Sequence record: PZ386969.1
DNA from: a phage
Length of the DNA: 64,000 nucleotides
Direction: 5' to 3' (one strand)
Shown one piece after another: positions 1 to 16,666 of this stretch. The position numbers were made by a program, and so were the translations under genes. How positions within the stretch are numbered: position 1 is the first letter of the stretch; every line of letters begins with the position of its first letter. Below the pieces are notes generated by a model that saw only the letters and a list, made by a program, of their open reading frames with translations, made no database searches and was not told the origin of the DNA.

Positions 1-588
1 GGCGTCTTCGATGGTCTTCAGTAGATCACGGGAAGACCTGGCCTGTTTACCGACGTTGACCGTGGTTGTGCCATCAGGGGACGTGGTGACCTCGACGGTT
101 GTTTCATCTCCAGGAGGTGGCTCTCTGTCGCCCGTGACTGCCTTGATAGTTTTCTGGTTCTCCATCAGGTCTTTGTTCAGACCGCGCATGAGTTCACCCA
201 ACTCTTTAAAGACTGTGAAGGCACGGGGTGCTTCAGTCGTCGTCGCAAGTTTGGCTGCCTGTCCCATCATGAACATCGTGGCTTCCTGCATGGCATAAGT
301 CGTGTCACGGATGCGTTTGTAGTCGGTGGTGGCATCAGTGTCTTCGAAGTCTGGAACCTTAGACTCCTTGGGCTTCAGCTCTTCTGGGTCCAATGAAGGA
401 GGAAACACCACAGGCTCATACCCCGCAGACTCATACCCCGCAGGCTTTTCACCCAACCATTCACCTGTATCCGGATCGTAATCTTTTCCAGCCACAGGCG
501 AGGTCTTCTCCATGACTTCTTGAGCGACCTCATCTCGCGCTTGGATAGCACTGAGGGTGGATAATAGGCGTTCTGACATAGCACTCAT
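1..588 (-). CDS. virion structural protein, N-terminal part (gene runs off the window start)
   Basis: ATG at 586-588 on minus strand with GGAG 8 nt upstream; frame hand-translated open to position 1 (MSAMSERLLSTLSAIQ...); absent from ORF track because no in-window stop. Confidence 0.5.
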   Translation of the reverse strand, partial: MSAMSERLLSTLSAIQARDEVAQEVMEKTSPVAGKDYDPDTGEWLGEKPAGYESAGYEPVVFPPSLDPEELKPKESKVPDFEDTDATTDYKRIRDTTYAMQEATMFMMGQAAKLATTTEAPRAFTVFKELGELMRGLNKDLMENQKTIKAVTGDREPPPGDETTVEVTTSPDGTTTVNVGKQARSSRDLLKTIEDA

Positions 589-590
589 AA

Positions 591-1286
591 TCAATCTCCA
601 GGATGATGTACACCGTCTTTGTCAACACGGAACCACTCTGGCAGTTCCGTCCACGGTGTTTTCAAATCATTAGACATTTCGATAATTATCTCTTTGATCC
701 CGTTAGGATCCCCACCTCCACCGTTGTCCACCCAATAGTCATACCCGTAGATGAAGCCACTCAGCTGGAACATGAAGGAGCAGTCGACGTGTGGTGAATC
801 AGAAGCATCCCCTTCCCAGTTATCGGACATCTGGTGGCTAACCAGTTGGATCTTGATCTTCTGGTCTTGCTGTAGTGTATCGTTGTCCTTGATACCACAG
901 TCTAGAGAGGGAGTGAATACCGAATAAACCTGCTCTAGCACCTGTAACATCTCAACCAATTTCTTGGTTCGGATATTGTACTCAAAATCGATAATCAGGG
1001 GGATTCGCTGCTTCGCCCCTGCTGTTGGTGTCGATTGTCGATTGTGGTACGTCTTCGTCACCTGTTTGTTGATCTCAAACTGACCAAAAGAGAAAGTCGC
1101 AAATGGAAGCATGTTGGACGGCACGTTCCTGTTGAGGTCATTGCGTCTCCCGATGGCCATGTGTAATGGGACTTCCATAAGTCCACGCTCTGTGTTCACC
1201 TTCAGGTCAGACATAATGGTGGCAAACAGATTGATGTATTTCATCAATGAATCATGGTAGAAGTAATTTTCAAATGGTCTGGCCAT
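591..1286 (-). CDS. hypothetical virion/baseplate-associated protein (231 aa)
   Basis: ORF track; tightly packed in minus-strand structural operon; GGGGDPNG glycine-rich loop; no family recognised. Confidence 0.45.
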   Translation of the reverse strand: MARPFENYFYHDSLMKYINLFATIMSDLKVNTERGLMEVPLHMAIGRRNDLNRNVPSNMLPFATFSFGQFEINKQVTKTYHNRQSTPTAGAKQRIPLIIDFEYNIRTKKLVEMLQVLEQVYSVFTPSLDCGIKDNDTLQQDQKIKIQLVSHQMSDNWEGDASDSPHVDCSFMFQLSGFIYGYDYWVDNGGGGDPNGIKEIIIEMSNDLKTPWTELPEWFRVDKDGVHHPGD

Positions 1287-1288
1287 GA

Positions 1289-1939
1289 TTATTCTCCAAA
1301 GTCGATCTTCATCTTGTCTGTTGCAAGTCCCTTCTCAAGAACATCTGCTAAAGCATTGTCGGTCTGTAGAGAAGAATCCTTGTACACGTCCGGTTCGTTC
1401 TCTTCGTCCAAGATGGACAGACGTTTGTCGATATCGTCGATCTCCGGAACGCCCGTATCGAAGTTTTCGTTGCCGTACTGGAACAACGTGCACGGTAGAG
1501 AGAACGTATACCATTTGCCAAATTGCATGAAGTCTTCATCGTTGTTCGGGTTGTTGACCTTGAAGATCTTGTTCGCCAGTGGTAGATAGATCAGGTCACC
1601 TTCCTGAGGTTGTTGTTCAAACCCAACACCGTTGCCTATCACCTCAGCAAATCGGCGGCGCGAGATAGAGAACGTCACTTCGTCTTGCAATTGGATACCC
1701 CCAAACTTCTCCCACATCTGGGTGTTGAAGCCCTGGTAATCCTGCATGTATGCTTCGATGTCGAACGCCTGGTCGAATCTGTGGTTAGCATCGTTGGTGA
1801 TAGGAAATTTTTCAACGATGGAACGGGGTATATACTTGATGTCTATCCCGCGCAACTCAATCATTTCCTGTACCAAATCTTCAATCAGCTTCTGTGTGCC
1901 TTGGTGATTGGTGGCGTTGAAATATTTAGAAGTGGCCAT
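1289..1939 (-). CDS. hypothetical structural protein (216 aa)
   Basis: ORF track; ATG start confirmed; late-promoter-like motif and ribosome-site hairpin directly upstream. Confidence 0.5.
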   Translation of the reverse strand: MATSKYFNATNHQGTQKLIEDLVQEMIELRGIDIKYIPRSIVEKFPITNDANHRFDQAFDIEAYMQDYQGFNTQMWEKFGGIQLQDEVTFSISRRRFAEVIGNGVGFEQQPQEGDLIYLPLANKIFKVNNPNNDEDFMQFGKWYTFSLPCTLFQYGNENFDTGVPEIDDIDKRLSILDEENEPDVYKDSSLQTDNALADVLEKGLATDKMKIDFGE

Positions 1940-1972
1940 ATCGATACCCTCAATTTTGAAGGTATTTAGTCG
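1940..1972 (-). promoter_or_regulatory. late-promoter-like CTAAATACC plus inverted copy overlapping the ribosome site (GAGGGTAT) of gene 1289..1939
   Basis: minus-strand reading CTAAATACCTTCAAAATTGAGGGTATCGAT-ATG; resembles T4 late promoter TATAAATA. Confidence 0.45.
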
Positions 1973-1998
1973 AAGTTTATTCTTTTGAGGAATAGCTC

Positions 1999-2211
1999 AT
2001 GCAAGTGGAAGACATCAAAGAAGTTCGCAGCGGTCGTCGCGTCCGAATCATCTGTGTAGACGCCAAGATTGGAGGTGGTGATTACGACATCGTCGGTCTG
2101 GTGAAAGAAGTAGATGGCACAGACTTCATTGAGTGGTGGAACTCCAAAGACAAGACAGAAGACGGTCTGCTGCGTGGTAGTGGCAACGGAAACCTGGATT
2201 TGAAAATCTAA
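1999..2211 (+). CDS. small hypothetical protein (70 aa) on opposite strand inside the structural operon
   Basis: ORF track; GAGGA 10 nt upstream of ATG; followed by GC-rich hairpin. Confidence 0.3.
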   Translation: MQVEDIKEVRSGRRVRIICVDAKIGGGDYDIVGLVKEVDGTDFIEWWNSKDKTEDGLLRGSGNGNLDLKI

Positions 2212-2212
2212 A

Positions 2213-2240
2213 AGAAGGGCGGGTAATCCCGCCTTTCCTT
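2213..2240. terminator. bidirectional rho-independent terminator-like hairpin
   Basis: AAGGGCGGG-TAAT-CCCGCCTTT flanked by A-run and T-rich tail. Confidence 0.5.
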
Positions 2241-2997
2241 ATCCCATGTAGAAGTCGATAGGGTACTGCTGACCAGTACGCAATTCTTCCTCTAAACGCT
2301 CGATCTCCGCTTCAGCCTCACTGAACATACTATCGCCATCCAGCTCGATACCGCCAGGGAGACGGATGCCTCTTGCCTTCTTGAGCACTTCTGCCCAGCG
2401 GCGCTTGACCAACGCAGTTGCATATGCCTTCAGCCACATATCATTCCATGCTTCTTCATTACCCTCAACCTCTGGGTCGATGTTCTGGAAGCATTTGAAC
2501 GCCAACACCTCGTCCTTTATCAGGGCGAATTGTGGGTAGAGTTTGCGCTGGAATTTCTTGTAAACGAAGGTGCGCTTCACGTTCAGCACACTGGTTATGT
2601 CAGACAAACGCTGTTGCATTGAAACATAGTCGACCAAGCGGATGGAAACGAGGGCGGCCTTTGGTACCAACATGGCTTGGGCCATCTGCCATTGAGGGGT
2701 TGCCCAGTTACCGATCGATTCAATCGGAGGGCCAACGATGACTTCAACCACGTCGTCGATGTCTTTGGGGAATTCGATGTAACCGTTGGTGATAGTTTCT
2801 TCAGTCACCTGGTGAACAAAGAATGCGTCCTGACTGCCATCACGATGATACTCCCAAAACTTCTGTAGAGCATCGTCTACAGCATCCGAAACTTGCGTTG
2901 GGTCAAGGTTGATCTGAATTACAGGTGCCCCCAATTTCTTGAGAATGTAATTCATAAATCCTTTACGATCAACAATAGAATTAACGGCCATTGCCAT
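2239..2997 (-). CDS. hypothetical structural protein (252 aa)
   Basis: ORF track; ATG start; 17-nt overlap with next gene suggests translational coupling. Confidence 0.5.
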   Translation of the reverse strand: MAMAVNSIVDRKGFMNYILKKLGAPVIQINLDPTQVSDAVDDALQKFWEYHRDGSQDAFFVHQVTEETITNGYIEFPKDIDDVVEVIVGPPIESIGNWATPQWQMAQAMLVPKAALVSIRLVDYVSMQQRLSDITSVLNVKRTFVYKKFQRKLYPQFALIKDEVLAFKCFQNIDPEVEGNEEAWNDMWLKAYATALVKRRWAEVLKKARGIRLPGGIELDGDSMFSEAEAEIERLEEELRTGQQYPIDFYMG

Positions 2998-3319
2998 TCC
3001 CCTTGTTGCTCTGGATATCAGCGACGGTGATACGTAAAGTGCGAACGTCGTCAGATAGACTGTTGCTATTGAGTTTCAACTCAGCAACGTTCTGCTTAAC
3101 GTAGTTGACGTCTGTGTTTAACACAGCAATCTTCTCATTCATATCGTTCACCTTGGTGAGGATTAGGTCGACCTTGTTGGAGTCACGCTCAACCACATCA
3201 AGGCGATTCTCAAATTTACCCATCATCCAAACAACCGAGCCAACAGAGACTATCGTCGCCGTCAGCACCCCGGTGAGGATCGCTTTCACATCGATCACAG
3301 TGTCAGTTTGGGTTGCCAT
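2981..3319 (-). CDS. membrane-anchored coiled-coil protein (112 aa from ATG at 3319)
   Basis: track start replaced by ATG preceded by CAGGAGG; hydrophobic N-terminal segment then heptad-like region. Confidence 0.45.
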   Translation of the reverse strand: MATQTDTVIDVKAILTGVLTATIVSVGSVVWMMGKFENRLDVVERDSNKVDLILTKVNDMNEKIAVLNTDVNYVKQNVAELKLNSNSLSDDVRTLRITVADIQSNKGNGNGR

Positions 3320-3551
3320 CTTGGCCTCCTGACGGGAGTTCAATCCCGAGGTGTTCTGCCATGAGTTGTACCATCGCTGTCAGTTGATCTATTTGCGCTG
3401 CCTGCGCTGCAATAGTTCTGTCCTTTTCTTCCTGATTTCGACGAGCGTTCAATGCTGCCAAACCGGCAGCATTGTCTGTGCAGATGATAGCCCCAGGGCA
3501 AGAGCTACTTCTCATCATCGATGCATGCCCTTGTACTTTTACACCACGCAT
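3303..3551 (-). CDS. small hypothetical protein (82 aa)
   Basis: ORF track; ATG with GAGGA upstream. Confidence 0.45.
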   Translation of the reverse strand: MRGVKVQGHASMMRSSSCPGAIICTDNAAGLAALNARRNQEEKDRTIAAQAAQIDQLTAMVQLMAEHLGIELPSGGQDGNPN

Positions 3552-3600
3552 GATAATATCCTCTGTTAATGGCGGGGCAACCCCGCCTTGTTAATACTAC

Positions 3601-6600
3601 TTATGCCAGAGCAATCAAACGGAAATCTTTGAATGACGGCGGTGCTATGCGGTTGCCTCTGACCAGCAGGCGGATCTTCAGGCCAACGAAAGGATTGGTG
3701 CTGTCTACAGTCTTGTCATACTCATATTCGAAGAATGTAGAACCGTCATTGACCAGAGGGGATGTCGGTGCCACAGTTTCCCATGCCACATTATCCATCT
3801 CCTGGCCTGCGCGCAGCAGTTTAACCTGCACAGTCATTGAAGACTGAGAAGGTAGCATCGCGCCGAAGTATTGCTTCAGAGTGGTGCAAGGGTTATCGAA
3901 TCCGATATCCTTGGTCACATAGCTGAACACATCTTCAAACGGATCCACACCGTAGGTGTTGAAGATGATAGTGAAATCATCACCGTCGATCATTGGAGCC
4001 GTGTAGACATTACTCTCGTTGCGAGTCATGGTTGCACGAACCTGGAAGTCGCCCACCTGACGATAGATACCTTCTGTCTCCAGAGACACGTCCGTGTCGG
4101 ATTCGAACTCAACCCAATCAGAGAATGAGTTGGAGGTCGCATCGCGATAGCGGTATTCCAGTTTCAATACAGATCCTTCTAGGGCTGAATTGGTGACGCT
4201 TGCGTAGAACATGTCTACCAAGTAGTTGCCTAGGAAAGAAGCCGCTTCACCACCAATCTGACCGTCGGAGTCGGCGTTGGAACTCAGAACGAATTTGAAC
4301 GTCGTGAACGTCGCATCAGTCACAGTGTGTTGAGCGTTCAGTTGCTCAGGAGTGAAACCGCAACCACCCGTCAACCCAGACAGAGTAACACTTTCACCCG
4401 CAGTCAGGCCATGCCCCGGAGCGTACACAGTAACAGTTGAAGAACCGTTGACACATTTCACGGTGTTCAGACCCAGAGGGCGGATCTTCGGACCGACTTT
4501 AGCATCGAAGGTCACGATGTTTGAACCAGCGGAGAAGTTACAGCGATACACACGGAACTTCATATCGGCAGTCTGGTTTGGAGTCCAGGTCGTACCATTT
4601 GAAGATGTGAAGAACACGCCAGTGTACGGCTGTTTGGCAATGAACTCGTTGGTCAGCAAGTTCTTCTTACCCATCTCTGCGATGTATGCGTTGTAGTCCT
4701 GAGTGTTGGCCAAGAGAACAATCGCGAACTCAGTCTGCGCCTGCAGATACACAGGATAATCAAACTTGAACATCGTCGGCACAGAAGAGTCTGTGGAGAT
4801 GGAAACTTCTGATGGATTCAGAGTCTTACGAGTGACGACAGTCGTCGCTGGCAGACCATTGCTCATCTCACGGATTTCCAGAGTGATCGGGATATCACGG
4901 GACTTGGTAGAGAAGAACACTTCAATACCTTCGATGTATTCGCCGCCGATATTGGTGGCAACCATGAAGGACTGGGCGATAGGATCTTTCCACTTCGCGA
5001 CTTCAACCGTCTCTGTTTTGTTTTCCGTAGACTTGGTCGCAGTGTATCCCAGGACGCGAGTGTTGACATAAGTCTTCTGGATGCCCTGTTTCTTGCCGAA
5101 GGACTTATGAACAGCCTCGGCATTGGTCAGGGTATCATCAGCAGACTTGCTATCCACAGGACTGTCAGTCAGACGGAAGACGTTGTCGCCCGTGTTAAAC
5201 TTGATAGTCTCGTTCTGAGGAACCGCAAACACACCTTTGATGTTGCCGTTGGCATCAGTGTTCAACGCACCACCCAGTACACCACCGTTTGGGGTACAGT
5301 ACGCGCTCACATCACGTCCAGAGAAGAACGGATACACACGAGTGAACGGACGTAGACCTGTGGCTTCGAAGTTGATATTCGTTTTGCGCATGTATGGGAT
5401 TACCTGCGTTTCAACGATCTGCTCGCCAGTCAGGGTAGTGGTCGTCTTGTCGGTGTACGTGTACGTGGTGACGTCACGGGTAGACACAGTCGTGCGGTAG
5501 CGATAGCCCCACCATACACCACCTGCACCATGCGGTTCCCACACACGCTCAGACACAGACACAGTACGCCATGTGCCATACACAGAACCTTCTTTGATCG
5601 CACCACGGGTGTTGATCGTTTCGTTGATCACACGTGGGGTGACATAGTAGTTCTCAAACCAGTAATCAGTAGTCGGGTTCAGCTTCAAGAAGCCTTCCCA
5701 GTTGAACACCGCATACGGGTTCACGTTGATGGTCGTGGTTGCATAGTCCTGGCGGACAGAGATCTCACGGGTGTAGTTGCATACAACCATGCCATCCTGA
5801 ACGTTGTTCCAACCGACTGGCGTCAGGTCAATCGCGTTCTGCTGAACAAACGGGCGTAGGCGACCATTGTCAGTGTCGATTGAACCCACCCAGTCTGCAG
5901 ACAAATCGTCGATCAGACGGAAGTCTTTGAACGGGTCTGCTGCGATACCGTTCTTGAAGCGCGGGTTACCAGTAATTGGATCGAACACCTGTTGTGACAT
6001 CGCCGAGGATTCCAGCTGAGACAGTGAGGTGTAATATTCGACATTGGAGATACGGGTCTCCAGTTTACCGATATCGCGCATCGTGTAGCGGCGGTTGTCG
6101 ATAGTACGAATCTGGATGTCGTCAATGTTGGCCGTGTATGGTGGGATCATCAATTCATACAGGCGCATGCCGTTGTCTGGGATCGCAGGGGAAGCCAGGT
6201 TGTTGGAACTCACACCACGAGCAACGTTGAACACGCCGTTGTCTGCCAGATACACAGCATCAATACGAGGCAGATAGTACTCTGCATCTAGGATGATCGC
6301 GGTGTTCGGACGAACCATGTCCGTGTCAGACGCTCCGCTGGTGATCTTGGGACGGAAATCCAGACTGTCGGCCAATCCATACACAGTACCAGAACTGGAT
6401 GAAACATAGTTCGGGATGTCTGGGTAGTTGATGGACGAATAGGAGTCCGCTGTGAAGAAATCACCAGAGCTGTGAGCGAAATACTGATACACCACCGTGA
6501 ACGTCCCTGAAATGGCTCCTGTGGACGATATGAGGTTAGAAAGGTAGTATGCCGCATCGCGTTGACCACCGTCCAGAGTGAAGTTCGAGGTGACGTCAGC

Positions 6601-8439
6601 GCCATTTGCGTTCTTCACGCTGATCAGCTTGTAACCATCATGGTTCCCAAGTTGTGCGCTGGCCGCCGCAGTAAACGTCACAGTCTCGGTGGCTTCGGTA
6701 ACAGTCTTGGTCTTGATCGTCGCTGTGGTGCGGACCATCAATGCCAACAGGTTGATAGACTGGTTGGCATACCCCGCACCCAGGGAAATCTGCAGTGCTG
6801 AACCAACCGGAGTACCAGCCAGGGACAGTCCCGAAGAGATATCAAACTGAGCTGCAGTGCCATCTGCCTTCGCTGCGGAGTACAGTGAAAACTCAGGGCT
6901 GAAGCTGTAACCCAGAGGAGCAGAGATTGAGCCTGCACCAGCGGCGTTCAACGTGATCTTGTTTGACCGCAGGACGGTGTAGTTGATGTCGATGGTGCCT
7001 GTAGGTGCTAGAGTCTTCACACCAAATACAGGCAGAGGGAAGATCAGGTCAATTGCTGAACTCTGGCTGAACTGATTGGACTCCAGTTCGCAGGAGAACA
7101 TGGTTGTGCCGCTTTCTTCGTATGCAACTTTGGTAACAGTACCCATGTCCCCAGTCACAACCAGGTCGCGCATATACAGACGGAATTCAGTACCGGAGCG
7201 CTCTGCCGAAATCAGCAGGGCGGTGGCCTGCACATCGCTGGATGCGTTCAGGAACTTGTAGCGGATTGTGCGGGAGACAACCGGAACCCCTTTGGAGTTC
7301 TTGGACACCAGATAGTTGCCAGTCGAAACAGCCACAGGGTTGTTGTTCAGGATATCAGTGTCACGGGCTTTGTCAATTATGACCAGCTCTTCGCCGAGGT
7401 TTTCGATACGACGACCACGAACGTAGGAAATGCCTGGCTTCATAACAGCCACGAATTTGCTTTCATCACCACCTTCAGCCGGAGTGTATACGCCACCGTT
7501 GTTGTTCTGTTTCAGATGTTCGCGTAGGTCGATCTGGTGAGTAGAGACGTTGTAGTCACCATTGGTCTCATAGGTACGCTGAGCCATGGCGTCTTCGAGG
7601 ATGTTGTATGTTGACTGGGTGACCATGGACTGAATGCGACCGTCTTTCACCTTCGCCAGTTCGACGAAGTCGGCCACTTCTTCATCATAACCGTAGCGAG
7701 ACAACACGAGGTCGACGCGCAGGCGATGCGCACCAGGGGCTTTAGAGTTCGGAGTACCCTGAGCATTGGAGAACAGACTTTCATCTTCTGCTTCAGTCAC
7801 GATTGTTTCTGTAACTTTGAAGCCAATGCGGTGAGATGTAGAGTTCGATGCGTTGTCTACGATCAAAGTGGTTGGTTCAACATCCAGGAACATACCACGA
7901 ACGAAATAAACACCCTTTGTCATGCGAGCGACAATCGAACCGCCAACAGTATCGGCCACACCATAGCCGACACGGATGAAGTTATCGTTCACGTCATAGG
8001 TGTTGAAGTATAGATTGTCACCAGCTTCGAAACCGTCTGAACTACCACTCTCAGTCATCTCTAAGATGGCATACATTGTATCCGGCTCAGCTGGATAACG
8101 TTCCAAGGACAGGACGCGTGCTTTCGCATTGTTGTCCTTGCCCAGAACATAGAGTTCGGAGATACCTTCCAGATCAGTGAACTCACTACCGCCAGCCAGA
8201 GTGAACTTCATGGACACAGCAGTGTTGGTGATCGTTAGGCCGCCGGGGATAACCATTGAACCGTCTTTGAACAGATGGTTGCCAAGTTTCTCCAGTTGAT
8301 CCTGGAAGATGGTCTGCATCTGGTTCAGTTCACGCGTCTGAACTTTGATAGGTGCCGGACGGAATAGGATGCGCGAAAAACGCTTCTCTGGATTCCAGTC
8401 ATCCCAATATGGGCGGCGGTTGAGGTTCATTTCTTGCAT
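3601..8439 (-). CDS. very large virion structural protein (~1612 aa), Thr/Ser/Gly-rich, likely baseplate or fibre component
   Basis: track start 8487 is TTG; first ATG at 8439 has GGAG 7 nt upstream; composition and position in structural operon. Confidence 0.6.
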   Translation of the reverse strand: MQEMNLNRRPYWDDWNPEKRFSRILFRPAPIKVQTRELNQMQTIFQDQLEKLGNHLFKDGSMVIPGGLTITNTAVSMKFTLAGGSEFTDLEGISELYVLGKDNNAKARVLSLERYPAEPDTMYAILEMTESGSSDGFEAGDNLYFNTYDVNDNFIRVGYGVADTVGGSIVARMTKGVYFVRGMFLDVEPTTLIVDNASNSTSHRIGFKVTETIVTEAEDESLFSNAQGTPNSKAPGAHRLRVDLVLSRYGYDEEVADFVELAKVKDGRIQSMVTQSTYNILEDAMAQRTYETNGDYNVSTHQIDLREHLKQNNNGGVYTPAEGGDESKFVAVMKPGISYVRGRRIENLGEELVIIDKARDTDILNNNPVAVSTGNYLVSKNSKGVPVVSRTIRYKFLNASSDVQATALLISAERSGTEFRLYMRDLVVTGDMGTVTKVAYEESGTTMFSCELESNQFSQSSAIDLIFPLPVFGVKTLAPTGTIDINYTVLRSNKITLNAAGAGSISAPLGYSFSPEFSLYSAAKADGTAAQFDISSGLSLAGTPVGSALQISLGAGYANQSINLLALMVRTTATIKTKTVTEATETVTFTAAASAQLGNHDGYKLISVKNANGADVTSNFTLDGGQRDAAYYLSNLISSTGAISGTFTVVYQYFAHSSGDFFTADSYSSINYPDIPNYVSSSSGTVYGLADSLDFRPKITSGASDTDMVRPNTAIILDAEYYLPRIDAVYLADNGVFNVARGVSSNNLASPAIPDNGMRLYELMIPPYTANIDDIQIRTIDNRRYTMRDIGKLETRISNVEYYTSLSQLESSAMSQQVFDPITGNPRFKNGIAADPFKDFRLIDDLSADWVGSIDTDNGRLRPFVQQNAIDLTPVGWNNVQDGMVVCNYTREISVRQDYATTTINVNPYAVFNWEGFLKLNPTTDYWFENYYVTPRVINETINTRGAIKEGSVYGTWRTVSVSERVWEPHGAGGVWWGYRYRTTVSTRDVTTYTYTDKTTTTLTGEQIVETQVIPYMRKTNINFEATGLRPFTRVYPFFSGRDVSAYCTPNGGVLGGALNTDANGNIKGVFAVPQNETIKFNTGDNVFRLTDSPVDSKSADDTLTNAEAVHKSFGKKQGIQKTYVNTRVLGYTATKSTENKTETVEVAKWKDPIAQSFMVATNIGGEYIEGIEVFFSTKSRDIPITLEIREMSNGLPATTVVTRKTLNPSEVSISTDSSVPTMFKFDYPVYLQAQTEFAIVLLANTQDYNAYIAEMGKKNLLTNEFIAKQPYTGVFFTSSNGTTWTPNQTADMKFRVYRCNFSAGSNIVTFDAKVGPKIRPLGLNTVKCVNGSSTVTVYAPGHGLTAGESVTLSGLTGGCGFTPEQLNAQHTVTDATFTTFKFVLSSNADSDGQIGGEAASFLGNYLVDMFYASVTNSALEGSVLKLEYRYRDATSNSFSDWVEFESDTDVSLETEGIYRQVGDFQVRATMTRNESNVYTAPMIDGDDFTIIFNTYGVDPFEDVFSYVTKDIGFDNPCTTLKQYFGAMLPSQSSMTVQVKLLRAGQEMDNVAWETVAPTSPLVNDGSTFFEYEYDKTVDSTNPFVGLKIRLLVRGNRIAPPSFKDFRLIALA

Positions 8440-8469
8440 TTTGATGCTCCATCGATAGGTGCCATTATA

Positions 8470-8482
8470 GAGATATTTAGTA
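8470..8482 (-). promoter_or_regulatory. late-promoter-like CTAAATATCT upstream of the large structural gene
   Basis: minus-strand CTAAATATCTCTATAATGG about 35 nt before the ATG. Confidence 0.4.
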
Positions 8483-8647
8483 TACAACCAACCGAGGAAT
8501 AGAAAGAAATAAGCCCGAAGGGGCTTTGATTATCTTTCTGTGGTTATGGTCATGGATTCGAGACCTCTGCCATTCATGGTAGATGGTATTCAATTAGGTA
8601 TGTTTAATATATCAGGTCAGACTATTACCTTAACTGCTGTATCGATT

Positions 8648-8680
8648 AGGGTAATGCAAACAGTAAACTCTATATAAAAA
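8648..8680. repeat. ~35-nt conserved element downstream of a tailspike gene (copy 1; copy 2 at 13505..13540)
   Basis: AGGGTAATG(C/A)AAACAGTAAACTCTATATAA shared at both loci, each just 3-prime of a tailspike stop. Confidence 0.6.
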
Positions 8681-8695
8681 GTATTATTAATAAGT

Positions 8696-8728
8696 AAAAA
8701 CAACCCCATAGAAGTGGGGTTGTTTTTA
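8696..8728. terminator. bidirectional rho-independent terminator
   Basis: AAAAACAACCCCAT-AGAA-GTGGGGTTGTTTTT. Confidence 0.6.
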
Positions 8729-8740
8729 AGTGATTATTAC

Positions 8741-10657
8741 TTACATAACAACTGCGGCAGATATGTATCCTGAATCTTGATACGATCCAGAAAGGTCAAA
8801 AACTTCTAAGTTAAAAGAGTCAGGGGATGTACTTACGACATTAATTACTAATTTCCCTCCGCTAGTGGTATTGCCAACACTGCATAAAACAGCATAAGCA
8901 GAGGAGGGCATAGTATTAGATAGGTTGACGGTATATTTACCGGTCCCGGTTTTAGTTACAGTTGCTCCATCCGCATACACTGACGACCCCGAAATTCCAT
9001 TAAAATTGATCATTGCCCGTGTACATGCACTCGACCTTTTTGCGACGGTAGACCCAATAAATGCGTATTCTTGGGCCTTGTTAATATAAATCTTATTAAC
9101 AGAAGTGTCAGGTACTTGTAAGACGTTATCTATAACAACATTACAGGCTGTTGCTCCAGATACGGTAGAGCATCTATCTATCTCATAATTGTCGATATTA
9201 ATAGCCCTTACAAAACCTATACCCCCAAATGCTGACCAGTTTTGTTTAACAAGAACACCGGAAATACCGGACAGGAAAATAAGATCGCCTGTCGTATCTT
9301 TGCTAAACGTGTTGTTGGTTATTGAAACAGAAGAAGAACGCGGTGAGTGACTATCATCTGCAACATATACCCTGGCTAAAGAAGAAGCAGTATTCTCTTC
9401 AAAGTAGTTACCATCTACCAGTAACTGCTGTGCACCCCCGGCGACAACACCTACGTCATAGCCCGTGTTTGCTTCAAATAGAGAGTCTCTGACTATGAAA
9501 TTTCGTACACTACTTGCAGTACCTGAGTCTCCGATAAGAACACCGTTAACACCATCAAAGAAAGTACAATTATCAACTTTAACTACGTTGATATCTACTT
9601 TTGACGTTTTTACACCATTTGCACATTTAGCGAAATAGCATGAAGTTAGCTCAGCCACCCCGGAAAAATAGTCTGGGGCGTCGTAATGTAAATAAACACC
9701 GTACCGGGCGTTTCTGACAACGCAATCTTGAAGTTTTAGGTACCAAGCCCCTCCGAAATCAAAACCATCAGACGATGAGTCCTGAATATCCAAGAAAAGT
9801 CCAGAAATCTTAGCTCCTATCGCACCACCTTGAACCCGAATGGCGGGTGACGCTAACCCGGTAAACTTAATTACTGAACCTGTTGTTTGGTCATTAACAT
9901 GTCCAAAACTATTACCAACAATACATAGACTATCAGTGGCAGTTATGATTAAAGTAGAGCTTATAAGATAAATACCATCCGGTATGTATAAACTCTTTTT
10001 CGAATCTATTGCTGCCTGAAACGCGGCGGTATCATCGGTCACACCGTCGCCAACAGCCCCGAAGTCCTTGACTGACACCAGGTCTTTATTTTTATCATGT
10101 AGTGTTCGCTTAATGGAGTTGGCCAGAGGTGACTTAAATCCGACCAGACCAGCGCCATCATCAGATGCAAGATTGATTCTCAAGGCTGCATCACCAACAC
10201 TAACCCACTTGTCTAACCCAGTACCTCCAGCACTTTCAGGAGTTGAGCCAGAAGAAACGGTTTTAGGTAACTCACCATCCCAGCGATACTTACCTGTTGT
10301 ATGGGTAAGCAATTCATTTTTAACATTAAGTGTAGCACCATTGTCAAACGACCCAGACAATGTAACGTATTCTTCACGAGATACGGCTAATTCCCCAAGA
10401 TCTACGGAACCAGCTGAATGTACAAGTACGGCATTAGTACCAAGACTTACAGCAGTCACCCCCGAACCAATGTCAGCAGGCAAGGAATAGGCACGCTGAG
10501 TAGCCTTATCATAAATTACTTTGTAACCACCTAAGTCTACACCTACAGCAAAGTAGACTACCTCATTCTGTTTAACACCAAACTTACGGGCAATGGCTTG
10601 CTTATTGGTAAGAATACCAGTAGAGCCTTTACCACCTTGTGAGAACATTTCGTTCAT
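8741..10657 (-). CDS. tailspike protein (638 aa), conserved N-terminal region plus beta-helix-like body
   Basis: N-terminal block VVYFAVG..GYKVIYDK..VLVHSAGSVDLG..REEYVTL..RWDG shared with the two neighbouring genes; repetitive C-terminal body; AAGAGG ribosome site. Confidence 0.75.
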   Translation of the reverse strand: MNEMFSQGGKGSTGILTNKQAIARKFGVKQNEVVYFAVGVDLGGYKVIYDKATQRAYSLPADIGSGVTAVSLGTNAVLVHSAGSVDLGELAVSREEYVTLSGSFDNGATLNVKNELLTHTTGKYRWDGELPKTVSSGSTPESAGGTGLDKWVSVGDAALRINLASDDGAGLVGFKSPLANSIKRTLHDKNKDLVSVKDFGAVGDGVTDDTAAFQAAIDSKKSLYIPDGIYLISSTLIITATDSLCIVGNSFGHVNDQTTGSVIKFTGLASPAIRVQGGAIGAKISGLFLDIQDSSSDGFDFGGAWYLKLQDCVVRNARYGVYLHYDAPDYFSGVAELTSCYFAKCANGVKTSKVDINVVKVDNCTFFDGVNGVLIGDSGTASSVRNFIVRDSLFEANTGYDVGVVAGGAQQLLVDGNYFEENTASSLARVYVADDSHSPRSSSVSITNNTFSKDTTGDLIFLSGISGVLVKQNWSAFGGIGFVRAINIDNYEIDRCSTVSGATACNVVIDNVLQVPDTSVNKIYINKAQEYAFIGSTVAKRSSACTRAMINFNGISGSSVYADGATVTKTGTGKYTVNLSNTMPSSAYAVLCSVGNTTSGGKLVINVVSTSPDSFNLEVFDLSGSYQDSGYISAAVVM

Positions 10658-10678
10658 AACGACCTCTTTGTTTTTCTA

Positions 10679-10701
10679 AGAAACCCCGCCGAAGCGGGGT
10701 T
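10679..10701 (-). terminator. GC hairpin with CTTCGG-type loop between tailspike genes
   Basis: AACCCCGC-TTCG-GCGGGGTT on minus strand after stop of gene 10706..13210. Confidence 0.5.
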
Positions 10702-10705
10702 AGTT

Positions 10706-13210
10706 TTACGAGTAAGCACTCTCGAACTTACAAAACCAGGTTGCTCCTTCATCAGTTGTTGACAACCTAAAAACTTGTGTTCCAGCTGCTGTCAAAGATG
10801 GGGTATTGCTTGCTAATTTAACATTTGCACCAAATGTTATTGTTTTAGATGTTGTTGAACAGACAGCCAAAAGAACCTCAACATAACCAATTAGTGTATT
10901 TGTTAATACTGCTGGAGTTATTGTTACATCTCCTGTAACTGTAGCTGCGATGTAAGATGCGTCTGAAAAGTCAGGCGCATAACTTGCTGTTGGCGTCTCG
11001 AACTTTGGATTTCTTACCAATACAGGAACTCCAACATTTTTCCTGAAAATTGTACTATTGCAAACCATATCATACTCTATACCAACAAAATTCTTAGCTG
11101 CAAGTATGTTAGTAAATGTCTGGTCCGCAGAGTAAATATGAGTTATCAGCCTTGCCACCCATGCTGGTGAGTTTGAGTTTTCACACTCAATGAATGAACA
11201 GTTGATACTACCAACGGCGAATGGCATTAGTGATGCCGTATATGAAGATAGCCCTGCGTCATTAAACGCATTCATATTCACAAACGTCTGGCATTGAGAG
11301 AACGTATTACCGGTGGCTCCACCATCAATAAAAAAGCCAATCCCGCCGTTAATATAACCATCTACAGGATCTAAATTAGCTTTCGCGTAGTCCCATTTTG
11401 ATGGAGAATCTGCAAAACATTGATTGAAGGAATTGTTTATTGAGTTCTGTACAACAAAGCAGCATTTCATCCTTGAGTTCTGGTCAGTGACTGTATCGTC
11501 ATACATGCCCCAGTTGTGCACCTTACTAATTCTGTTATTGCCACCACCACGAACCCAGGTACCAAATCGGAAATAACGACCTTCACCCATACTAACCTGA
11601 TGATCGCTACCTTCAACAATGTGGGCTGTGCTGAGTGGATTAGTTGGTTTTAATACACCAACAGCATAAAACTTCAATAGGTGCACACCCATACCGCCAG
11701 CAATATGGATGCCATGACCATCAATATTGGCTACGTAAATGCCATCTAACTTGTTGGCATAACCATCAGATATTTTAAATCCATTAACAGTTTTTGCACG
11801 GGCATCAATTAAAAGATTGCTAATGTGCCCAGCGTATTGATTACCTGTACCTTTATCACACTTTACAGCATAACCAGATGAGTCTGCTATGAAGTCATCT
11901 GTCAGGTATACCCCACCGAAACCAGCATCAATGCTAACATCTCCGTGAATGTGTAGTGTCGTACTGATAGGATATTTCTTCCCATTCAGCCTGATAACTT
12001 TGCTTACAGTGTTAGGTTGTAGCCAGTCAGGATGGTTAGCAGCACTACTTGGTGCATGTTCTAAACCTGTTAAAGCTGCCGCAGCATCAATCGCATCCTG
12101 TAATGATGGATACATATCCGGGTTGACATTTATAATTTTCTTAAGCGCATTGCCAACAGTACCAGTTTCGTAATCAATTGACTTATCAAAACCTGAAAAA
12201 CCTGCTCCTGTAGGTTTAGCCAATTCTGACTTCAATGAAGCATCACCAACACTAACCCATGCACCTGTTCCAACACCACCGGTTGATGTAGTGGTTGAGT
12301 CAGCGGGGACAACTTTAGGTAGTGCACCCTCCCACGTATAGCACTGACCACCAGCGATGTGCCAAACAGCATCCGTTTCACTATTAACTGTTGCACCTTC
12401 TTCAAAGCTACCAGCAACGAGAGATAAACCTGCTTCTGCAAGTAAACGTCTCCACAATTCTCTGGTATTCGACTCTTGATGAGTAGGTAACAAAGTAACA
12501 GTAATATTACCTGGATTGTACGTTAACTGCCCATTACTAACGGATGAGATGTATATGTTAGAGGGTAATGAAGGTAACCCATATGACTTCTGCTCACTAA
12601 CAGAGTAGACAATCTTTTTACCATTCAATAATTGCGTAGTGTCAGTGCTAAGAATTACTTCACTGTCCTTAACGTTAGTTGCACGAGCGATTTCTTGAAT
12701 ACTTCGGTCAAACAACGGACTGATATTCGGTTGTTTAACAGACATTTCAGCGACTACCCAAACGCCTGCAGTCAGCGCAGTTTGTAAAGACACTTTCCCT
12801 GTCGTGCTGTCATAGGAATATTCAATTTCGGGTGTTTTGTACTCACCACCGATATAAAGAGATTGGACTCCATAATATGTGTAATCAGGAGTGAACTCGG
12901 TTTCACCTCCTATAGCCTGAAACTTATAGATTCGAACCCCGGTTTTATAATCTTCTGGAGACAGAATCTTATCAAACAGACAGAACACAACGTCACCTTT
13001 GGATAATGCGCGTCCGAGATTCAACGTATTTCCATCGATTTCAAAGTTGTCTAACGGAACTTGCATGCCACCGTTGATTGTGACTATACCAGTGACAGGG
13101 TAGAAAGGGAGGGAGATAAACTTCTCTCCACCCGTTGCTGTGTAAGTGTATGGAATCTGGTGCGGAGCTGTTACGACCGCTCCAAAGATGCTCTCGACGT
13201 TTCTGGTCAT
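10706..13210 (-). CDS. tailspike protein (~834 aa from second ATG)
   Basis: shares N-terminal conserved block with neighbours; second ATG at 13210 has GGGG ribosome site while ATG at 13225 lies inside the hairpin. Confidence 0.75.
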   Translation of the reverse strand: MTRNVESIFGAVVTAPHQIPYTYTATGGEKFISLPFYPVTGIVTINGGMQVPLDNFEIDGNTLNLGRALSKGDVVFCLFDKILSPEDYKTGVRIYKFQAIGGETEFTPDYTYYGVQSLYIGGEYKTPEIEYSYDSTTGKVSLQTALTAGVWVVAEMSVKQPNISPLFDRSIQEIARATNVKDSEVILSTDTTQLLNGKKIVYSVSEQKSYGLPSLPSNIYISSVSNGQLTYNPGNITVTLLPTHQESNTRELWRRLLAEAGLSLVAGSFEEGATVNSETDAVWHIAGGQCYTWEGALPKVVPADSTTTSTGGVGTGAWVSVGDASLKSELAKPTGAGFSGFDKSIDYETGTVGNALKKIINVNPDMYPSLQDAIDAAAALTGLEHAPSSAANHPDWLQPNTVSKVIRLNGKKYPISTTLHIHGDVSIDAGFGGVYLTDDFIADSSGYAVKCDKGTGNQYAGHISNLLIDARAKTVNGFKISDGYANKLDGIYVANIDGHGIHIAGGMGVHLLKFYAVGVLKPTNPLSTAHIVEGSDHQVSMGEGRYFRFGTWVRGGGNNRISKVHNWGMYDDTVTDQNSRMKCCFVVQNSINNSFNQCFADSPSKWDYAKANLDPVDGYINGGIGFFIDGGATGNTFSQCQTFVNMNAFNDAGLSSYTASLMPFAVGSINCSFIECENSNSPAWVARLITHIYSADQTFTNILAAKNFVGIEYDMVCNSTIFRKNVGVPVLVRNPKFETPTASYAPDFSDASYIAATVTGDVTITPAVLTNTLIGYVEVLLAVCSTTSKTITFGANVKLASNTPSLTAAGTQVFRLSTTDEGATWFCKFESAYS

Positions 13211-13215
13211 TTGAA

Positions 13216-13255
13216 GATACCCCATAGAGGATTTGCCAATATGGGGTATTTAGTC
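13216..13255 (-). promoter_or_regulatory. late-promoter-like CTAAATACCCC with inverted copy GGGGTAT covering the translation start
   Basis: perfect 10-bp inverted repeat ATACCCCATA/TATGGGGTAT. Confidence 0.5.
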
Positions 13256-13290
13256 TGAACTAATAAATTTATGAACAAAGGTATAACAAG

Positions 13291-13310
13291 AACCCCGCCA
13301 AAGCGGGGTT
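13291..13310. terminator. GC-rich hairpin
   Basis: AACCCCGC-CAAA-GCGGGGTT. Confidence 0.4.
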
Positions 13311-13318
13311 TGACACTC

Positions 13319-13492
13319 CTATTCCAGACACATTTCAAAATGTATACCAACATCACCCCACCCATCATAAACAGACGACCCCGATATTCTTGATCCATCT
13401 ATGTTGGCGAAATAAAAATACGCTGACCCATCATTGATATCACCTATAAAGTTCTTATACCCGTTTGATGACAACCCGAGAGAGAGCCAACA
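13319..13492 (-). pseudogene. possible relic of a tailspike C-terminal segment (no start codon)
   Basis: minus-strand frame gives ...ANIDGSRISGSSVYDGWG...; the heptapeptide ISGSSVY also occurs near the C-terminus of tailspike 8741..10657 (NFNGISGSSVYADG). Confidence 0.3.
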
Positions 13493-13504
13493 GCATTATC
13501 AATC

Positions 13505-13540
13505 AGGGTAATGAAAACAGTAAACTCTATATAATAAAAG
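13505..13540. repeat. conserved element downstream of tailspike gene (copy 2)
   Basis: see 8648..8680. Confidence 0.6.
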
Positions 13541-13562
13541 CCCCCAAAATTGGGGGCTTTTT
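13537..13562. terminator. bidirectional rho-independent terminator
   Basis: AAAGCCCCC-AAAATT-GGGGGCTTTTT. Confidence 0.6.
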
Positions 13563-13568
13563 ATTATA

Positions 13569-16500
13569 CTACCAGTAATACCAATCACCTTTTTTACTTC
13601 TGACTAGAATAGAACAATCGGTAACAGCTACTGTAGACACCCCACCAATCCTTATCTCATACAGTTTACTAGGCAATCTTTTCTTAGTTAGAGAGACTTT
13701 AAAATCTGTACCAGTTACAGTGATATATTCCGTCCCATCCTCACTATCTATCTGTAAATCTAGGCCGCTGGGACTTGCTGGGAGCTTAACATAAAGCTGT
13801 TGTTCTGCTGTACTACCAGCAAAATGACCGATAACTGTAGATGTCCACTCACTTAAAGTCAACCCTGAACGCACAAAGTCTACATTGAGCGGTTCCTTAA
13901 TAAGTGCAGCAGGTGCATTGTAATTATGCCCGTTAAGTACATAGTAGTTGCTGCTACCAACCTCTACTGTGTCTGCTGTGCAGTAAGAGTGGAAGGTTTT
14001 TGCGTTATCAAAGCGATATAGACTTCTGATTAGCACACGCTCTTGATTGCTTCTGGTTAAAATGCCACAACCTGCGGAAAGGTGGAGTGTGGAGATGGTA
14101 AGCGTATGACTTTCACTGTTGGCCTTGGATGACAGCAATGACACCTTGGGTTCACCCTCTTGAGTAAAGTCTTTACTATTACCCTCACAGTACATGACCC
14201 CAATGTCCCACGCAGCAGGGTCCATTGTTACTACCCCAGCACCTGCCGTATTCTCAGAGCAAATCACACCAACACTGGTAGACAAACCACGACCTAAGAT
14301 AATACCAGCACCTATTGTATATTTACTCGCATCATCCGTGATTGGGTCATAACCTAGTCCCGTAGACTTATCAGTACCCCATGCACTAATGTGAGGGAAG
14401 TGTGTAGCATTCACATAGGTATCCCCTTGCTCACCTTCTGTTGAATAACCTAATGCCATACCCCTTGCACAGTTGTTTGCATGGAGAGTGCCCATTTGAA
14501 AATACCAGCAAGCAAACATTACAATGCCATATCTATTAGCATTATATGCATAGATGCTACCCATCTCAGATTCTGCACACAGAAGACGTGCATAAAAACC
14601 ATATGATGCAATATCTGCACAGTCTACGTTTAAGCTACCGATTAAGCGTAATCCTCGCACTTGATTCTCTGTATTAGCCACATCCACTGTTGCTGTACCG
14701 ACAGGAAATTTACTAACGCGTACAACAGCTTTTAACGTAGGCCATACGGAGCCAATTGCTTTAATTGTTGCCCCGTTTAGATTCCCACGTAAGTAAGAAG
14801 GTATAACAACCTCATCCGTTACGTGGTAGGTAGAATTCCCATTCAGATTTAATGTACCTGTGGCTATAGCTAGTTTTATAGCAGGTAAACAGTCAAAACT
14901 AGGGTCATTGGGGATTGCACCAAAATTCTCAGGTGAGTGTTCATTAAACCCTGTTAGCTTACCAACGTTAGTCCAAGAAGAGTCTGGGGCAGCACCATAA
15001 CTAACAGGTAGTGTCCCATTGTACTTGTACCAGAACCCATCTGAATGTAGAACAACCTGATATTTATCGGATACATTCCCACCATCACCGAATACACCGC
15101 TCTTTTTGTAAAGAGACAGACTACCGGAATCAATAAGAGAAGAACCTTTCCAGGAGGCTAAACGTTGCTCTAATCCAACAACACCAACTACAAGCCATGC
15201 CCCTGGACCAACACCTCCTGTACCCAATGGGGTAGATTCTGGAGGGACTACTTTGGGTACAGAACCATCCCAACGATATTTAATATCGTTACTCACAACC
15301 AACTCATTCTTGGTATTAACAGTTACACCTGTATCGAATGAACCAGGTAAGGTCACATACTCCTCACGAGATACGGCTAATGCGCCCAGATCAACACTAC
15401 CAGCAGAATGCACAAGTACAGCCGAAGAACTAAGGCTGACTGCCGTGGTTCCAGTCGGTAGCTCTGGAATAAAATATGATCTCTGTGTTACTTTATCATA
15501 GATAACTTTATACCCGCTTAGCACAGCACCAACACTAAAATAAACGACCTCTGTATCTTTAACATTGGTTACACGAGCCACTTCCCGCAAAGTATGATCA
15601 ATTTGATTATAGATGTTTGGTGTTCCATTGATAATTACAACAACTTCATCTTCTGGTTCCAGTTCTTGCGCCAGAGTGATTTTACTGGTTAATGGATCGA
15701 ATGTGAATCCCAGATTTTTATACTGACGACTTCCGTTTATATCAATGGCCGGAACATCATCAACAACGACGTCCAACGTGATTTCGGTTTCACCGCCAAT
15801 CGCTGAACCCCCATTATAGACCCAAGTAATCGTAGAAGAACTAGAACCACCGCCATTACCCAATTGAATAGGAGTATATTCAATCACCTGAAGTTCTGTG
15901 CTGGCTGGCAAAGAAGGACTGAAAGTGATTACATTCCCATCTAGTGAATATTTGGATTCCGCAAGGCGTTTTCCGTCAGCATACACGTCCACGATTGTTG
16001 GTGGAGTATTGAGAGTGACAGTACTTGTTTCAGACGCCAAAATTTTTGTAAAGATTTCACGACTGTAGACACGGCCTTGGCCAAGACCGACGCCGGATGT
16101 AATAATCCAACCTTGTTCAGGTCCAGACCAAGTGAACGTTGCTGATACGTTATCAGTTGTTATAGCCATGTCTTCAGTGGAGCCATACAAATTATTTCCA
16201 GAAGGAGACACGGTCAATGGGTAAGTGGCAAATTTCCCATAAGCATCACAAATAGTAACGGAATCCCCAATACGCGTAGGGGAAGGGAGAACCACTGTAG
16301 ATGCCCCTGTGGTATTATTAATGAGATAGCCTCGCCCTTCAGTGAGCGTTGCCGTAGAGGCATGCGGAAGGACTTCCCAGCGGATGCCACCGCCACCCAG
16401 CGGCAACCAACCACCATTTTCGTAATAACCTTCGAATTCGTCGGAGTCGGCATTGTAGCGAACGGAAGACGGGAGTCCTGCGCTGGCATTACCCTCGGGT

Positions 16501-16622: not shown

Positions 16623-16624
16623 TT

Positions 16625-16666
16625 CAAATACCCCTAAATGTGTTCGTTTCATCTAGGGGTATTTAG
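16625..16666 (-). promoter_or_regulatory. late-promoter-like CTAAATACCCC with inverted copy immediately before the ATG
   Basis: perfect 11-bp inverted repeat AAATACCCCTA/TAGGGGTATTT. Confidence 0.5.

Follow-up and report, generated by a model that had tools for sequence, protein, structure and literature searches.

The closest structurally described relative of VriC, the protein that we analyse here from a 64,000-nucleotide (nt) stretch of phage DNA (sequence record PZ386969.1, hereafter the window), is the tripod protein gp119 of Staphylococcus phage 812, a Kayvirus whose baseplate structures (PDB 9EUF, 9EUI, 9EUJ, 9TIC and others) were described in the EMBO J in 2026 (PMC13433997). In that phage, loops of the arm scaffold serve as docking sites for twelve tripod trimers, whose base, fin and leg are sandwich domains resembling carbohydrate-binding modules or lectins, and on attachment the tripods turn, by about 170 degrees in the case of the outer ones, and refold, which contributes to setting the central spike free (PMC13433997). 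The VrlC homologue of Listeria phage A511 has been localised to the baseplate, and the pyramids built by A511 gp106 reorient towards the cell wall; earlier work also noted VrlC in cyanophages, ViI-like phages and phages of Gram-positive hosts, and connected the gene with baseplates that are large and double-ringed. For the Ackermannviridae, reviews and comparative papers treat vriC as a well-conserved gene that flanks the tailspike (tsp) cluster and serves as a search handle for it, and a 2024 review pointed out the resemblance of VriC to A511 and phi812 baseplate proteins and raised the possibility that it makes up the prong-like structures, so far unexplained, that are seen below the baseplate.

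The window gene (vriC/vrlC) occupies positions 3601..8439 of the minus strand and encodes 1612 amino acids (aa). Its product is the Ackermannviridae VrlC/VriC orthologue, a late-expressed, multi-copy virion protein homologous to the tripod protein over its full length, and we consider it probable that it forms a trimer at the periphery of the baseplate. Part of this picture was already known, as earlier publications cover the gene, how well it is conserved, its occurrence in virions and its likeness to the A511 and 812 proteins. What our analysis adds is a residue-level map of VriC onto the tripod protein, three modules specific to its clade, a negative test for enzymatic function, positional statistics for the motif upstream of the gene and a small partner gene. 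An earlier note on this DNA, made from the letters, had described an exceptionally large structural protein, with virion mass spectrometry as a check and absence from virions as the outcome that would speak against it. For orthologues such mass spectrometry is in the literature and found VriC to be abundant rather than absent: ORF206 of Shigella phage Ag3 was virion band A (177.2 kDa, 36 peptides, 39.6% coverage), among the six strongest bands, and VriC of Sajous1 (gp140), with 311 spectra, belonged to the five virion proteins that were represented most strongly. The description as a large structural protein holds, in the form of a virion protein, non-enzymatic and expressed late, that probably belongs to the tail tip.

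Homology and predicted fold of VriC

At the nucleotide level, the vriC sequence matches 107 phage records, with 98.7% identity to Escherichia phage vB_EcoM-RPN242, 97% to the 'virulence-associated VriC protein' gene of AV101 and 92% to orf206 of Ag3; across the genes annotated VriC or VrlC in Agtrevirus, Limestonevirus and other Ackermannviridae, identity ranges from 98.7 to 88%. Judged from these relatives, which are of the Agtrevirus/Aglimvirinae type, the window is from an Agtrevirus-like phage of the Ackermannviridae. Where the records name the gene product, they call it 'virulence-associated protein VriC/VrlC', and some 'tail fiber protein'. The 'virulence-associated' label was inherited from the vrl locus of Dichelobacter nodosus, and for VriC it is a name only, silent on function. 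A scan of bacterial genomes was likewise silent on this label.

VriC scores 205.8 bits (E 1.3e-60) with the Pfam family PF16075 (DUF4815), for which the cut-off is 30, and the same family was found in all 120 homologues among the matches listed; PHROGs returned families of unknown function only, and a scan with NCBIfam returned no match. The single significant sequence match in the PDB is a chain of 1152 aa, named 'DUF4815 domain-containing protein / ORF65' and present in 15 baseplate entries of Staphylococcus phage 812 (phmmer E 3.9e-53; E 3.6e-121 with a family profile built from 45 members), the entry codes of which are those of the phage 812 paper (PMC13433997). We identify this chain as the tripod protein gp119 because of gene order and fragment identity in the Kayvirus phiIPLA-RODI. 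There, genes for proteins of 1021, 173, 1152 (DUF4815) and 52 aa are followed by genes for 639, 123 and 458 aa, an order that agrees with arm scaffold gp117, arm segment gp118, tripod gp119, receptor-binding protein RBP1 (gp121), coupler gp122 and RBP2 (gp123) of phage 812, and wherever fragments of the chain are printed in the PDB alignment, they coincide residue for residue with RODI gp104.

The profile alignment of VriC and the tripod protein consists of four colinear blocks running from the N- to the C-terminus, and between them lie three modules (aa 61-170, 372-711 and 1313-1409) that are always present in the clade of ~1600-aa proteins (gap fraction ~0). The first block is the conserved N-terminus (aa 1-60; 8260..8439, on the minus strand like all domain coordinates given here), in which VriC 4-59 aligns with tripod 3-58 and AlphaFold2 predicts 'spine helix 1' (aa 32-56). 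It is followed by the beta-rich module A (aa 61-170; 7930..8259), delimited by the profile map and by predicted strands, with ~95 residues that lack a tripod counterpart; module A is found in the whole ~1600-aa clade (gap fraction 0.04) and its sequence is poorly conserved. The second block (aa 171-371; 7327..7929) aligns with tripod 73-252 and includes a short predicted helix at aa 281-292. Next comes the beta-rich module B (aa 372-711; 6307..7326), a stretch of 340 aa where the tripod protein has 131 aa, which was modelled confidently, with a predicted local distance difference test (pLDDT) score of ~85-93.

The third block is the DUF4815 core (aa 712-1312; 4504..6306), delimited by Pfam and by both PDB and profile alignments: VriC 712-1309 (to 1312) pairs with tripod 384-948 in the profile alignment, and 712-1307 with 393-948 in the single-sequence PDB alignment. 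It contains the predicted 'spine helix 3' (aa 787-815), beta-sandwiches beyond a poorly modelled stretch at ~aa 800-1000, and the best-conserved domain of VriC, aa 1151-1312, which is 32% identical to tripod ~789-951; the latter would be the lectin-like 'leg', going by a lectin-like match of Deep-Blue Gp176 at 811-959. The small beta module C (aa 1313-1409; 4213..4503), delimited by the profile map, is absent from the tripod protein. Pfam Phage_spike_2 appears here below its cut-off (aa 1351-1421, E 1.3e-3) together with a profile match to residues 192-257 of the phi92 endosialidase (E 1.1e-3), and the module weakly resembles a small trimeric domain of phage spikes and endosialidases. The protein ends in two predicted beta-sandwiches with a conserved tail, ...KDFRLIALA (aa 1410-1612; 3604..4212; pLDDT ~85-94). 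VriC 1410-1608 is weakly colinear here with tripod 958-1145 (18.3 bits), the region of 'anchor' and 'hook', and these sandwiches are candidate cell-surface-binding domains. The domain names of phage 812 apply to VriC approximately, as residue ranges are absent from the main text of the 812 paper.

Domain prediction and modelling in segments, both proposed in the earlier note, led to DUF4815 and to the fold of the 812 tripod. Two monomer segments (aa 1-1200 and 1001-1612) were modelled by AlphaFold2 from a 45-sequence alignment. The model of aa 1001-1612 (pLDDT 85) is all-beta with one disordered linker at ~aa 1119-1148, while that of aa 1-1200 (pLDDT 76) is confident to ~aa 790 and poor at ~aa 800-1000; low confidence there, in a monomer model, would fit a stretch whose folding depends on the oligomer, but is not evidence for a trimer. 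In these models the predicted helices, two long (aa 32-56 and 787-815) and one short (aa 281-292), match the three 'spine' helices of the tripod. When the models were compared with the PDB by Foldseek, 812 tripod chains (9euf_0 and 9eui_Q) came top for both (E 1e-20 and 3.3e-20), with low to modest TM-scores (0.25-0.48) because relative domain positions differ. Nothing else in the PDB fold search fell below E 1e-3, the next matches being a CBM22 tandem (E 2e-3) and phage endosialidases, and among the predicted viral structures of BFVD the models significantly matched VrlC/DUF4815 proteins alone. The fold matches to CBM22, endosialidases, a botulinum-toxin binding domain and an Sdr adhesin were weak (E > 1e-3 or low probability) and were not used.

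Compared with phage 812 gp119, VriC therefore presents a mixture of likeness and difference. Common to both are DUF4815, colinearity, the top fold match, three helices interleaved with beta-sandwiches, a gene within the baseplate block with a small open reading frame (ORF) following it, and the lack of a catalytic domain. On the other hand, VriC is 460 residues longer, mostly through modules aa 61-170, 372-711 and 1313-1409, and comes from a phage of a Gram-negative host. A number of points weigh against reading VriC as a tripod protein. Identity is only ~22-32% in the aligned core, ~400 residues in the three modules are without a tripod counterpart, and the C-terminal match, which falls in the very region for which cell-wall binding was proposed in 812, is a weak one of 18 bits; Pfam shows in VriC no counterpart to the LysM-like similarity of the 812 hook, and no PDB sequence is closer to VriC than the 812 chain. 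When the Kayvirus arm scaffold, arm segment, tripod, RBP1, coupler and RBP2 were searched for in the window, the tripod match alone was found; in particular, phmmer with the scaffold and the segment protein of the arm (Kayvirus gp102 and gp103, corresponding to 812 gp117 and gp118) gave no match among window ORFs, and no PHROG was shared. In addition, the baseplate location of the family was shown only for the A511 and 812 homologues, and a literature search found no cryo-electron microscopy or other structural study of an Ackermannviridae baseplate. Since the hosts here are Gram-negative, any ligand of VriC must differ from that of the 812 tripod, and it is from homology that we infer trimer formation, surface binding and a conformational switch for VriC.

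Enzymatic signatures and host specificity

A different reading would make VriC an additional host-range fibre or spike, possibly with depolymerase or sialidase activity, and several observations invite it. Some records use the name 'tail fiber protein', sialidase activity of VrlC-like domains has been the subject of published speculation, weak fold and profile matches lead to phage endosialidases, and an Asp-box-like sequence, TSSNGTTW, occurs at aa 1278. The protein itself, however, carries little of what such a role implies: no catalytic family was found in VriC by Pfam, NCBIfam or PHROGs, and neither a beta-helix nor Tail_spike_N nor a glycosidase family was seen (Pfam, NCBIfam). A scan for sialidase motifs found no FRIP and just the one degenerate Asp-box, where sialidases have several; the models show beta-sandwiches, not a six-bladed beta-propeller, and the likeness to endosialidases is confined to a ~70-residue, non-catalytic module. 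The published sialidase speculation is thus unsupported for VriC, given the missing FRIP and the single degenerate Asp-box. A protein of the Ackermannviridae tailspike type (TSP1-4) was considered and rejected as well, VriC being without Tail_spike_N and beta-helix and uniformly conserved.

Conservation along the sequence bears on the same question. Among close relatives, identity stays between 0.59 and 0.87 along the length of VriC, with no hypervariable distal domain, and identity of ~98% is kept between phages that infect E. coli, Enterobacter and Salmonella and have differing tailspikes. This evenness, together with the high identity across hosts, argues against VriC as a strain-specific receptor determinant. 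We therefore regard a role as fibre, spike or sialidase as very unlikely. It follows that the suggestion in the earlier note of an additional fibre did not survive (no beta-helix, no Tail_spike_N, no host-variable domain), while its remark that no enzymatic motif is recognisable proved accurate: Pfam returned only DUF4815 and the sub-threshold Phage_spike_2, NCBIfam nothing, and FRIP is missing.

The vriC gene and its surroundings

The gene is an uninterrupted minus-strand ORF from an ATG at 8439 to a stop codon at 3601-3603, supported by its translation, by Pfam DUF4815 and by nucleotide identity to relatives, and its product has a predicted mass of 177.3 kDa and an isoelectric point of 4.9. 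By simple arithmetic, the chance of 1612 stop-free codons is (61/64)^1612, or ~1e-34. The longest reading of the frame begins at a TTG at 8487; the ATG at 8439 is the likelier start because a GGAG ribosome-binding site (8447..8450, minus) precedes it with a 7-nt spacer and because annotated orthologues are exactly 4839 nt long. Threonine, serine and glycine together make up 25.5% of VriC, against 19.1 +/- 5.1% over 42 window ORFs and 27-29% in the tailspikes, a composition which is typical of beta-rich tail proteins. Several statements about the gene in the earlier note can be assessed here. Its coordinates and its length of 1612 aa are correct, on what is the minus strand (the note gave none); 'Thr/Ser/Gly-rich' is mildly true relative to the window ORFs, whereas the tailspikes are richer still; the placing of the gene between tailspikes and smaller structural genes agrees with tailspikes upstream and small virion and neck genes downstream; and the late-promoter-like motif that it saw in front of the gene is there, with statistical support.

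This motif, CTAAATATCT, lies at 8471..8480 on the minus strand, 34 nt 5' of the ATG, and a TATAAT-like hexamer follows just 3' of it (8469-8464, minus). Its core, CTAAATA, is unremarkable in the window by raw count, with 9 copies observed and 4.5 expected. Placement is another matter: in eight of nine cases a copy precedes the start of an ORF on the same strand by 7-34 nt, and seven of nine fall within 15-60 nt, a zone in which ~4.5% of positions would be expected by chance (binomial P ~ 1e-8). The copies near ORF starts are at 1963-1969, 8474-8480, 13247-13253, 16660-16666 and 20518-20524 on the minus strand and at 26714-26720, 27209-27215 and 59777-59783 on the plus strand, and the genes downstream of them include those for a gp6-like wedge protein, two tailspikes, VriC and gp14. 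The ninth copy (1923-1929), which is internal to the gp14-like ORF, probably arose by chance. Because placement is so far from random, we take CTAAATA to be a real upstream signal, putatively a promoter resembling the T4-type late promoter, and CTAAATA(C/T)C(C/T), on both strands, is a candidate late-promoter consensus of this phage.

Two terminator-like hairpins separate the last tailspike gene from vriC: a GC-rich hairpin with a T-run (8511..8526, minus; consensus scan and sequence), situated between that gene and the vriC motif, and a second, longer one at 8695-8728 (consensus scan). On the other side of the gene, 14 nt 3' of the vriC stop and ahead of the next gene, stands a perfect, all-GC hairpin of 7 bp (GGCGGGG-TTG-CCCCGCC; 3571..3587, minus). 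As it has no T-run on the minus (coding) strand, it may be an RNA-stability or attenuation element.

Around vriC, the minus strand of the window reads, in order, a gp6-like wedge gene (18699-20528), a gene for a 284-aa protein of Pfam PF23786 'baseplate wedge subunit' (17861-18715), a gene for a 396-aa protein of PHROG 3838 with unknown function (16669-17859), and three tailspike genes with Tail_spike_N domains encoding 1027 aa (13569-16652), 839 aa (10706-13225) and 638 aa (8741-10657); after vriC come an 82-aa ORF, an ORF of ~112-120 aa, and gp13-, gp14- and gp15-like genes, that is, neck and tail-completion genes. T4 has the gene order 6-7-8-(9-10-11-12-wac)-13-14-15. The baseplate block of the window follows a T4-like order, and vriC, between the gp10-like tailspikes and gp13, stands in the slot of gp11/gp12. 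The ORF of ~112-120 aa (2981-3343, minus), which overlaps the end of the 82-aa ORF and has weak coiled-coil-type matches and a match to PHROG 3961 of unknown function, is found in the slot of T4 wac (fibritin), just before gp13.

Given such a setting, one could ask whether VriC is an oversized inner-baseplate wedge protein and the equivalent of T4 gp7, which at 1032 aa is of a comparable order of size, vriC itself lying in the baseplate block. This we find scarcely credible: no match to T4 gp7 or to any wedge protein was obtained in the PDB by sequence, profile or fold, a separate wedge set is encoded upstream (the gp6-like protein, the PF23786 'baseplate wedge subunit' and the 396-aa protein), and the full-length homologue, the 812 tripod, is peripheral.

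The relation of vriC to the tailspike genes can be read from the pattern of identity to the closest relatives. Local BLAST against RPN242 gives 98.5% identity for window positions 1 to 8575, a stretch that takes in vriC and its promoter. Identity then ends at a sharp mosaic boundary, which is situated ~135 nt upstream of the vriC start and is flanked by the two terminator-like hairpins. Past 8575, the tailspikes share only N-terminal modules with RPN242 and AV101 (10189-10699, 12509-13308 and 15178 onward). Since identity runs through vriC and breaks at the tailspikes, vriC belongs to the conserved structural backbone, at the edge of an exchangeable cassette, and its conservation is independent of that cassette. 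The G+C content of the tailspike region (8001-16000) is ~42-43%, against 48-52% in the flanking structural genes, which is consistent with imported receptor-binding modules. The window phage has three tailspike ORFs, and RPN242 and AV101, its closest relatives by vriC, have four.

That vriC adjoins the tsp cluster in all classified Ackermannviridae, and that 30 unclassified genomes are without both loci, lends some appeal to the idea that VriC is an adaptor bearing the branched tailspike complex, with the TSP4 anchor domain docking on VriC trimers. The published docking site of that anchor is given just as 'the baseplate', and older immunolocalisation results from A511 were taken to mean that gp108, the receptor-binding protein, is attached to the VrlC homologue. 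Against this, tripods and receptor-binding proteins attach separately to the arm scaffold in phage 812, and the tripods carry nothing (PMC13433997). The family is also present in about 1700 phage genomes that lack such a tailspike complex (cyanophages, Herelleviridae, pelagiphages and rhizophages), and the literature calls the XD domains of the tailspikes gp10-like, gp10 being a protein that binds wedge proteins in T4. We consider an adaptor role unlikely, and a scaffold for the branched spike complex, as the earlier note had put it, is not the best reading of a family whose solved member is a passenger on the arm scaffold and which occurs where there is no spike complex. PDB sequence searches with the 284-aa and 396-aa proteins of the baseplate block found no relatives; both proteins are candidate docking sites for VriC and/or the TSP4 anchor.

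Partner gene, distribution and proposed role

The 82-aa ORF (3303..3551, minus) starts 49 nt after vriC and matches PHROG 4322/473 'virion structural protein'. A wide protein search with its product found close Ackermannviridae relatives only. In diverse bacterial-genome and metagenome-assembled genome assemblies, all 28 of 28 vrlC-like loci had an ORF of 54-94 aa at -22 to +67 nt from the vrlC-like stop, and 26 of these 28 small ORFs were recovered by jackhmmer from the 82-aa protein of the window. Members have in common the motif V-x-G-x3-L-x-R-D-x2-S-G-A-I-I-N-T at the N-terminus and an amphipathic helix at the C-terminus, and the family's hidden Markov model (HMM) matches gp058 of Pelagibacter phage HTVC008M ('virion structural protein', 1.4e-21) and CPRG_00205 of cyanophage Syn30 (1.3e-16).

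A small ORF following the family gene was also seen in Kayvirus, Listeria, Bacillus, cyanophage and pelagiphage records. In the Herelleviridae, an ORF of 52-73 aa occupies the same slot (RODI gp105, LMSP-25 gp143, BigBertha_103 and A511 gp107, a 'putative chaperone') and carries an R-D-x2-S-G-A-like motif. The small-family HMM did not match these Herelleviridae ORFs, and hhalign gave a probability of 61% over 19 columns; the sequence likeness is suggestive of a relationship to the 82-aa family. The phage 812 paper makes no mention of gp120 (PMC13433997). Because this family follows vrlC-type genes across very diverse phages, the 82-aa protein is a candidate partner of VriC, probably an assembly chaperone or a subunit bound to the tripod.

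The larger family is widespread. At E < 1e-5, 638 proteins match VriC, and tblastn with the conserved core hit 1692 phage records, chiefly from phages of Synechococcus (377), Staphylococcus (342), Bacillus (246) and Salmonella (164), with further matches in Vibrio, Enterococcus, Listeria and Klebsiella phages, pelagiphages and rhizophages. Full-length members of ~1600 aa with all three VriC modules include those of Vibrio phage VP-1, Ralstonia phage RSP15 and Delftia phage PhiW-14. T4-like cyanophages, pelagiphages and rhizophages encode VrlC proteins of the same family (examples are HTVC008M gp057 and those of PhiM12/PhiM9), which are abundant virion proteins; their genes adjoin gp8-like or wedge genes and are followed, as vriC is, by the homologous small ORF. 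Cyanophage VrlC is, in contrast to VriC, larger (~2000-2400 aa) and has further insertions. A511 gp106, to whose family the Listeria phages among the tblastn matches testify and which is followed by the small 'putative chaperone' gene gp107, differs from VriC in its length of ~1150 aa and in lacking the three modules, and the A511 baseplate is double-layered, whereas descriptions of the Ackermannviridae baseplate liken it to that of T4, bearing prongs and a star of spikes. The scan of bacterial genomes returned mostly metagenome bins, probably containing phage contigs; VrlC-type genes were also present in large contigs of two isolate genomes, Nonlabens xiamenensis and Desulfosporosinus acididurans, where they presumably lie in prophages or phage-derived elements.

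Reading VriC as a tripod-type protein suggests how it could act. Homotrimers of VriC, held together by three 'spine' helices, would be docked at the periphery of the baseplate and would be the 'prongs', as homology to phage 812 suggests. After binding and cleavage of the O-antigen or capsule by the tailspikes, the tripods would turn or unfold, the distal beta-sandwiches, which resemble carbohydrate-binding modules, would contact the cell envelope, and this contact could lock the post-attachment conformation of the baseplate and help to release sheath contraction. VriC would thereby fill the functional slot that the short tail fibres, gp11/gp12, have in T4. The comparison with T4 gp12 and gp11 is one of function: the genes share the same slot in the gene order, and both would be peripheral trimers that turn to bind the cell irreversibly, whereas no similarity was seen in sequence or fold and the role of VriC is itself deduced.

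A broader, more tentative idea, to which we give less than even weight, is that the conserved tripods and their small partner make up a missing 'second receptor' device of the Ackermannviridae. Such a device would sense an invariant part of the Gram-negative envelope, such as the lipopolysaccharide core or an outer-membrane component, after clearance of O-antigen or capsule, and its flip would release contraction. The three extra modules, absent from the tripod protein of a Gram-positive host's phage, would then be an adaptation to this envelope, and VrlC with its partner would be an ancient, portable module of Ackermannviridae, cyanophages, pelagiphages and rhizophages, and possibly of Herelleviridae.

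These considerations matter for the way in which Ackermannviridae are studied and used. Work on their application in biocontrol and diagnostics centres on the swapping of tailspikes, and the role of the abundant and conserved neighbour VriC has just been guessed at ('prongs'). The match to the tripod protein provides a concrete structural model and, with it, predictions: a trimer at the rim of the baseplate, reorientation on attachment and a conserved ligand in the envelope. If tripods do represent a conserved second step of binding, this would set a limit to what can be achieved by tailspike engineering alone, and would offer bacteria a second route to phage resistance.

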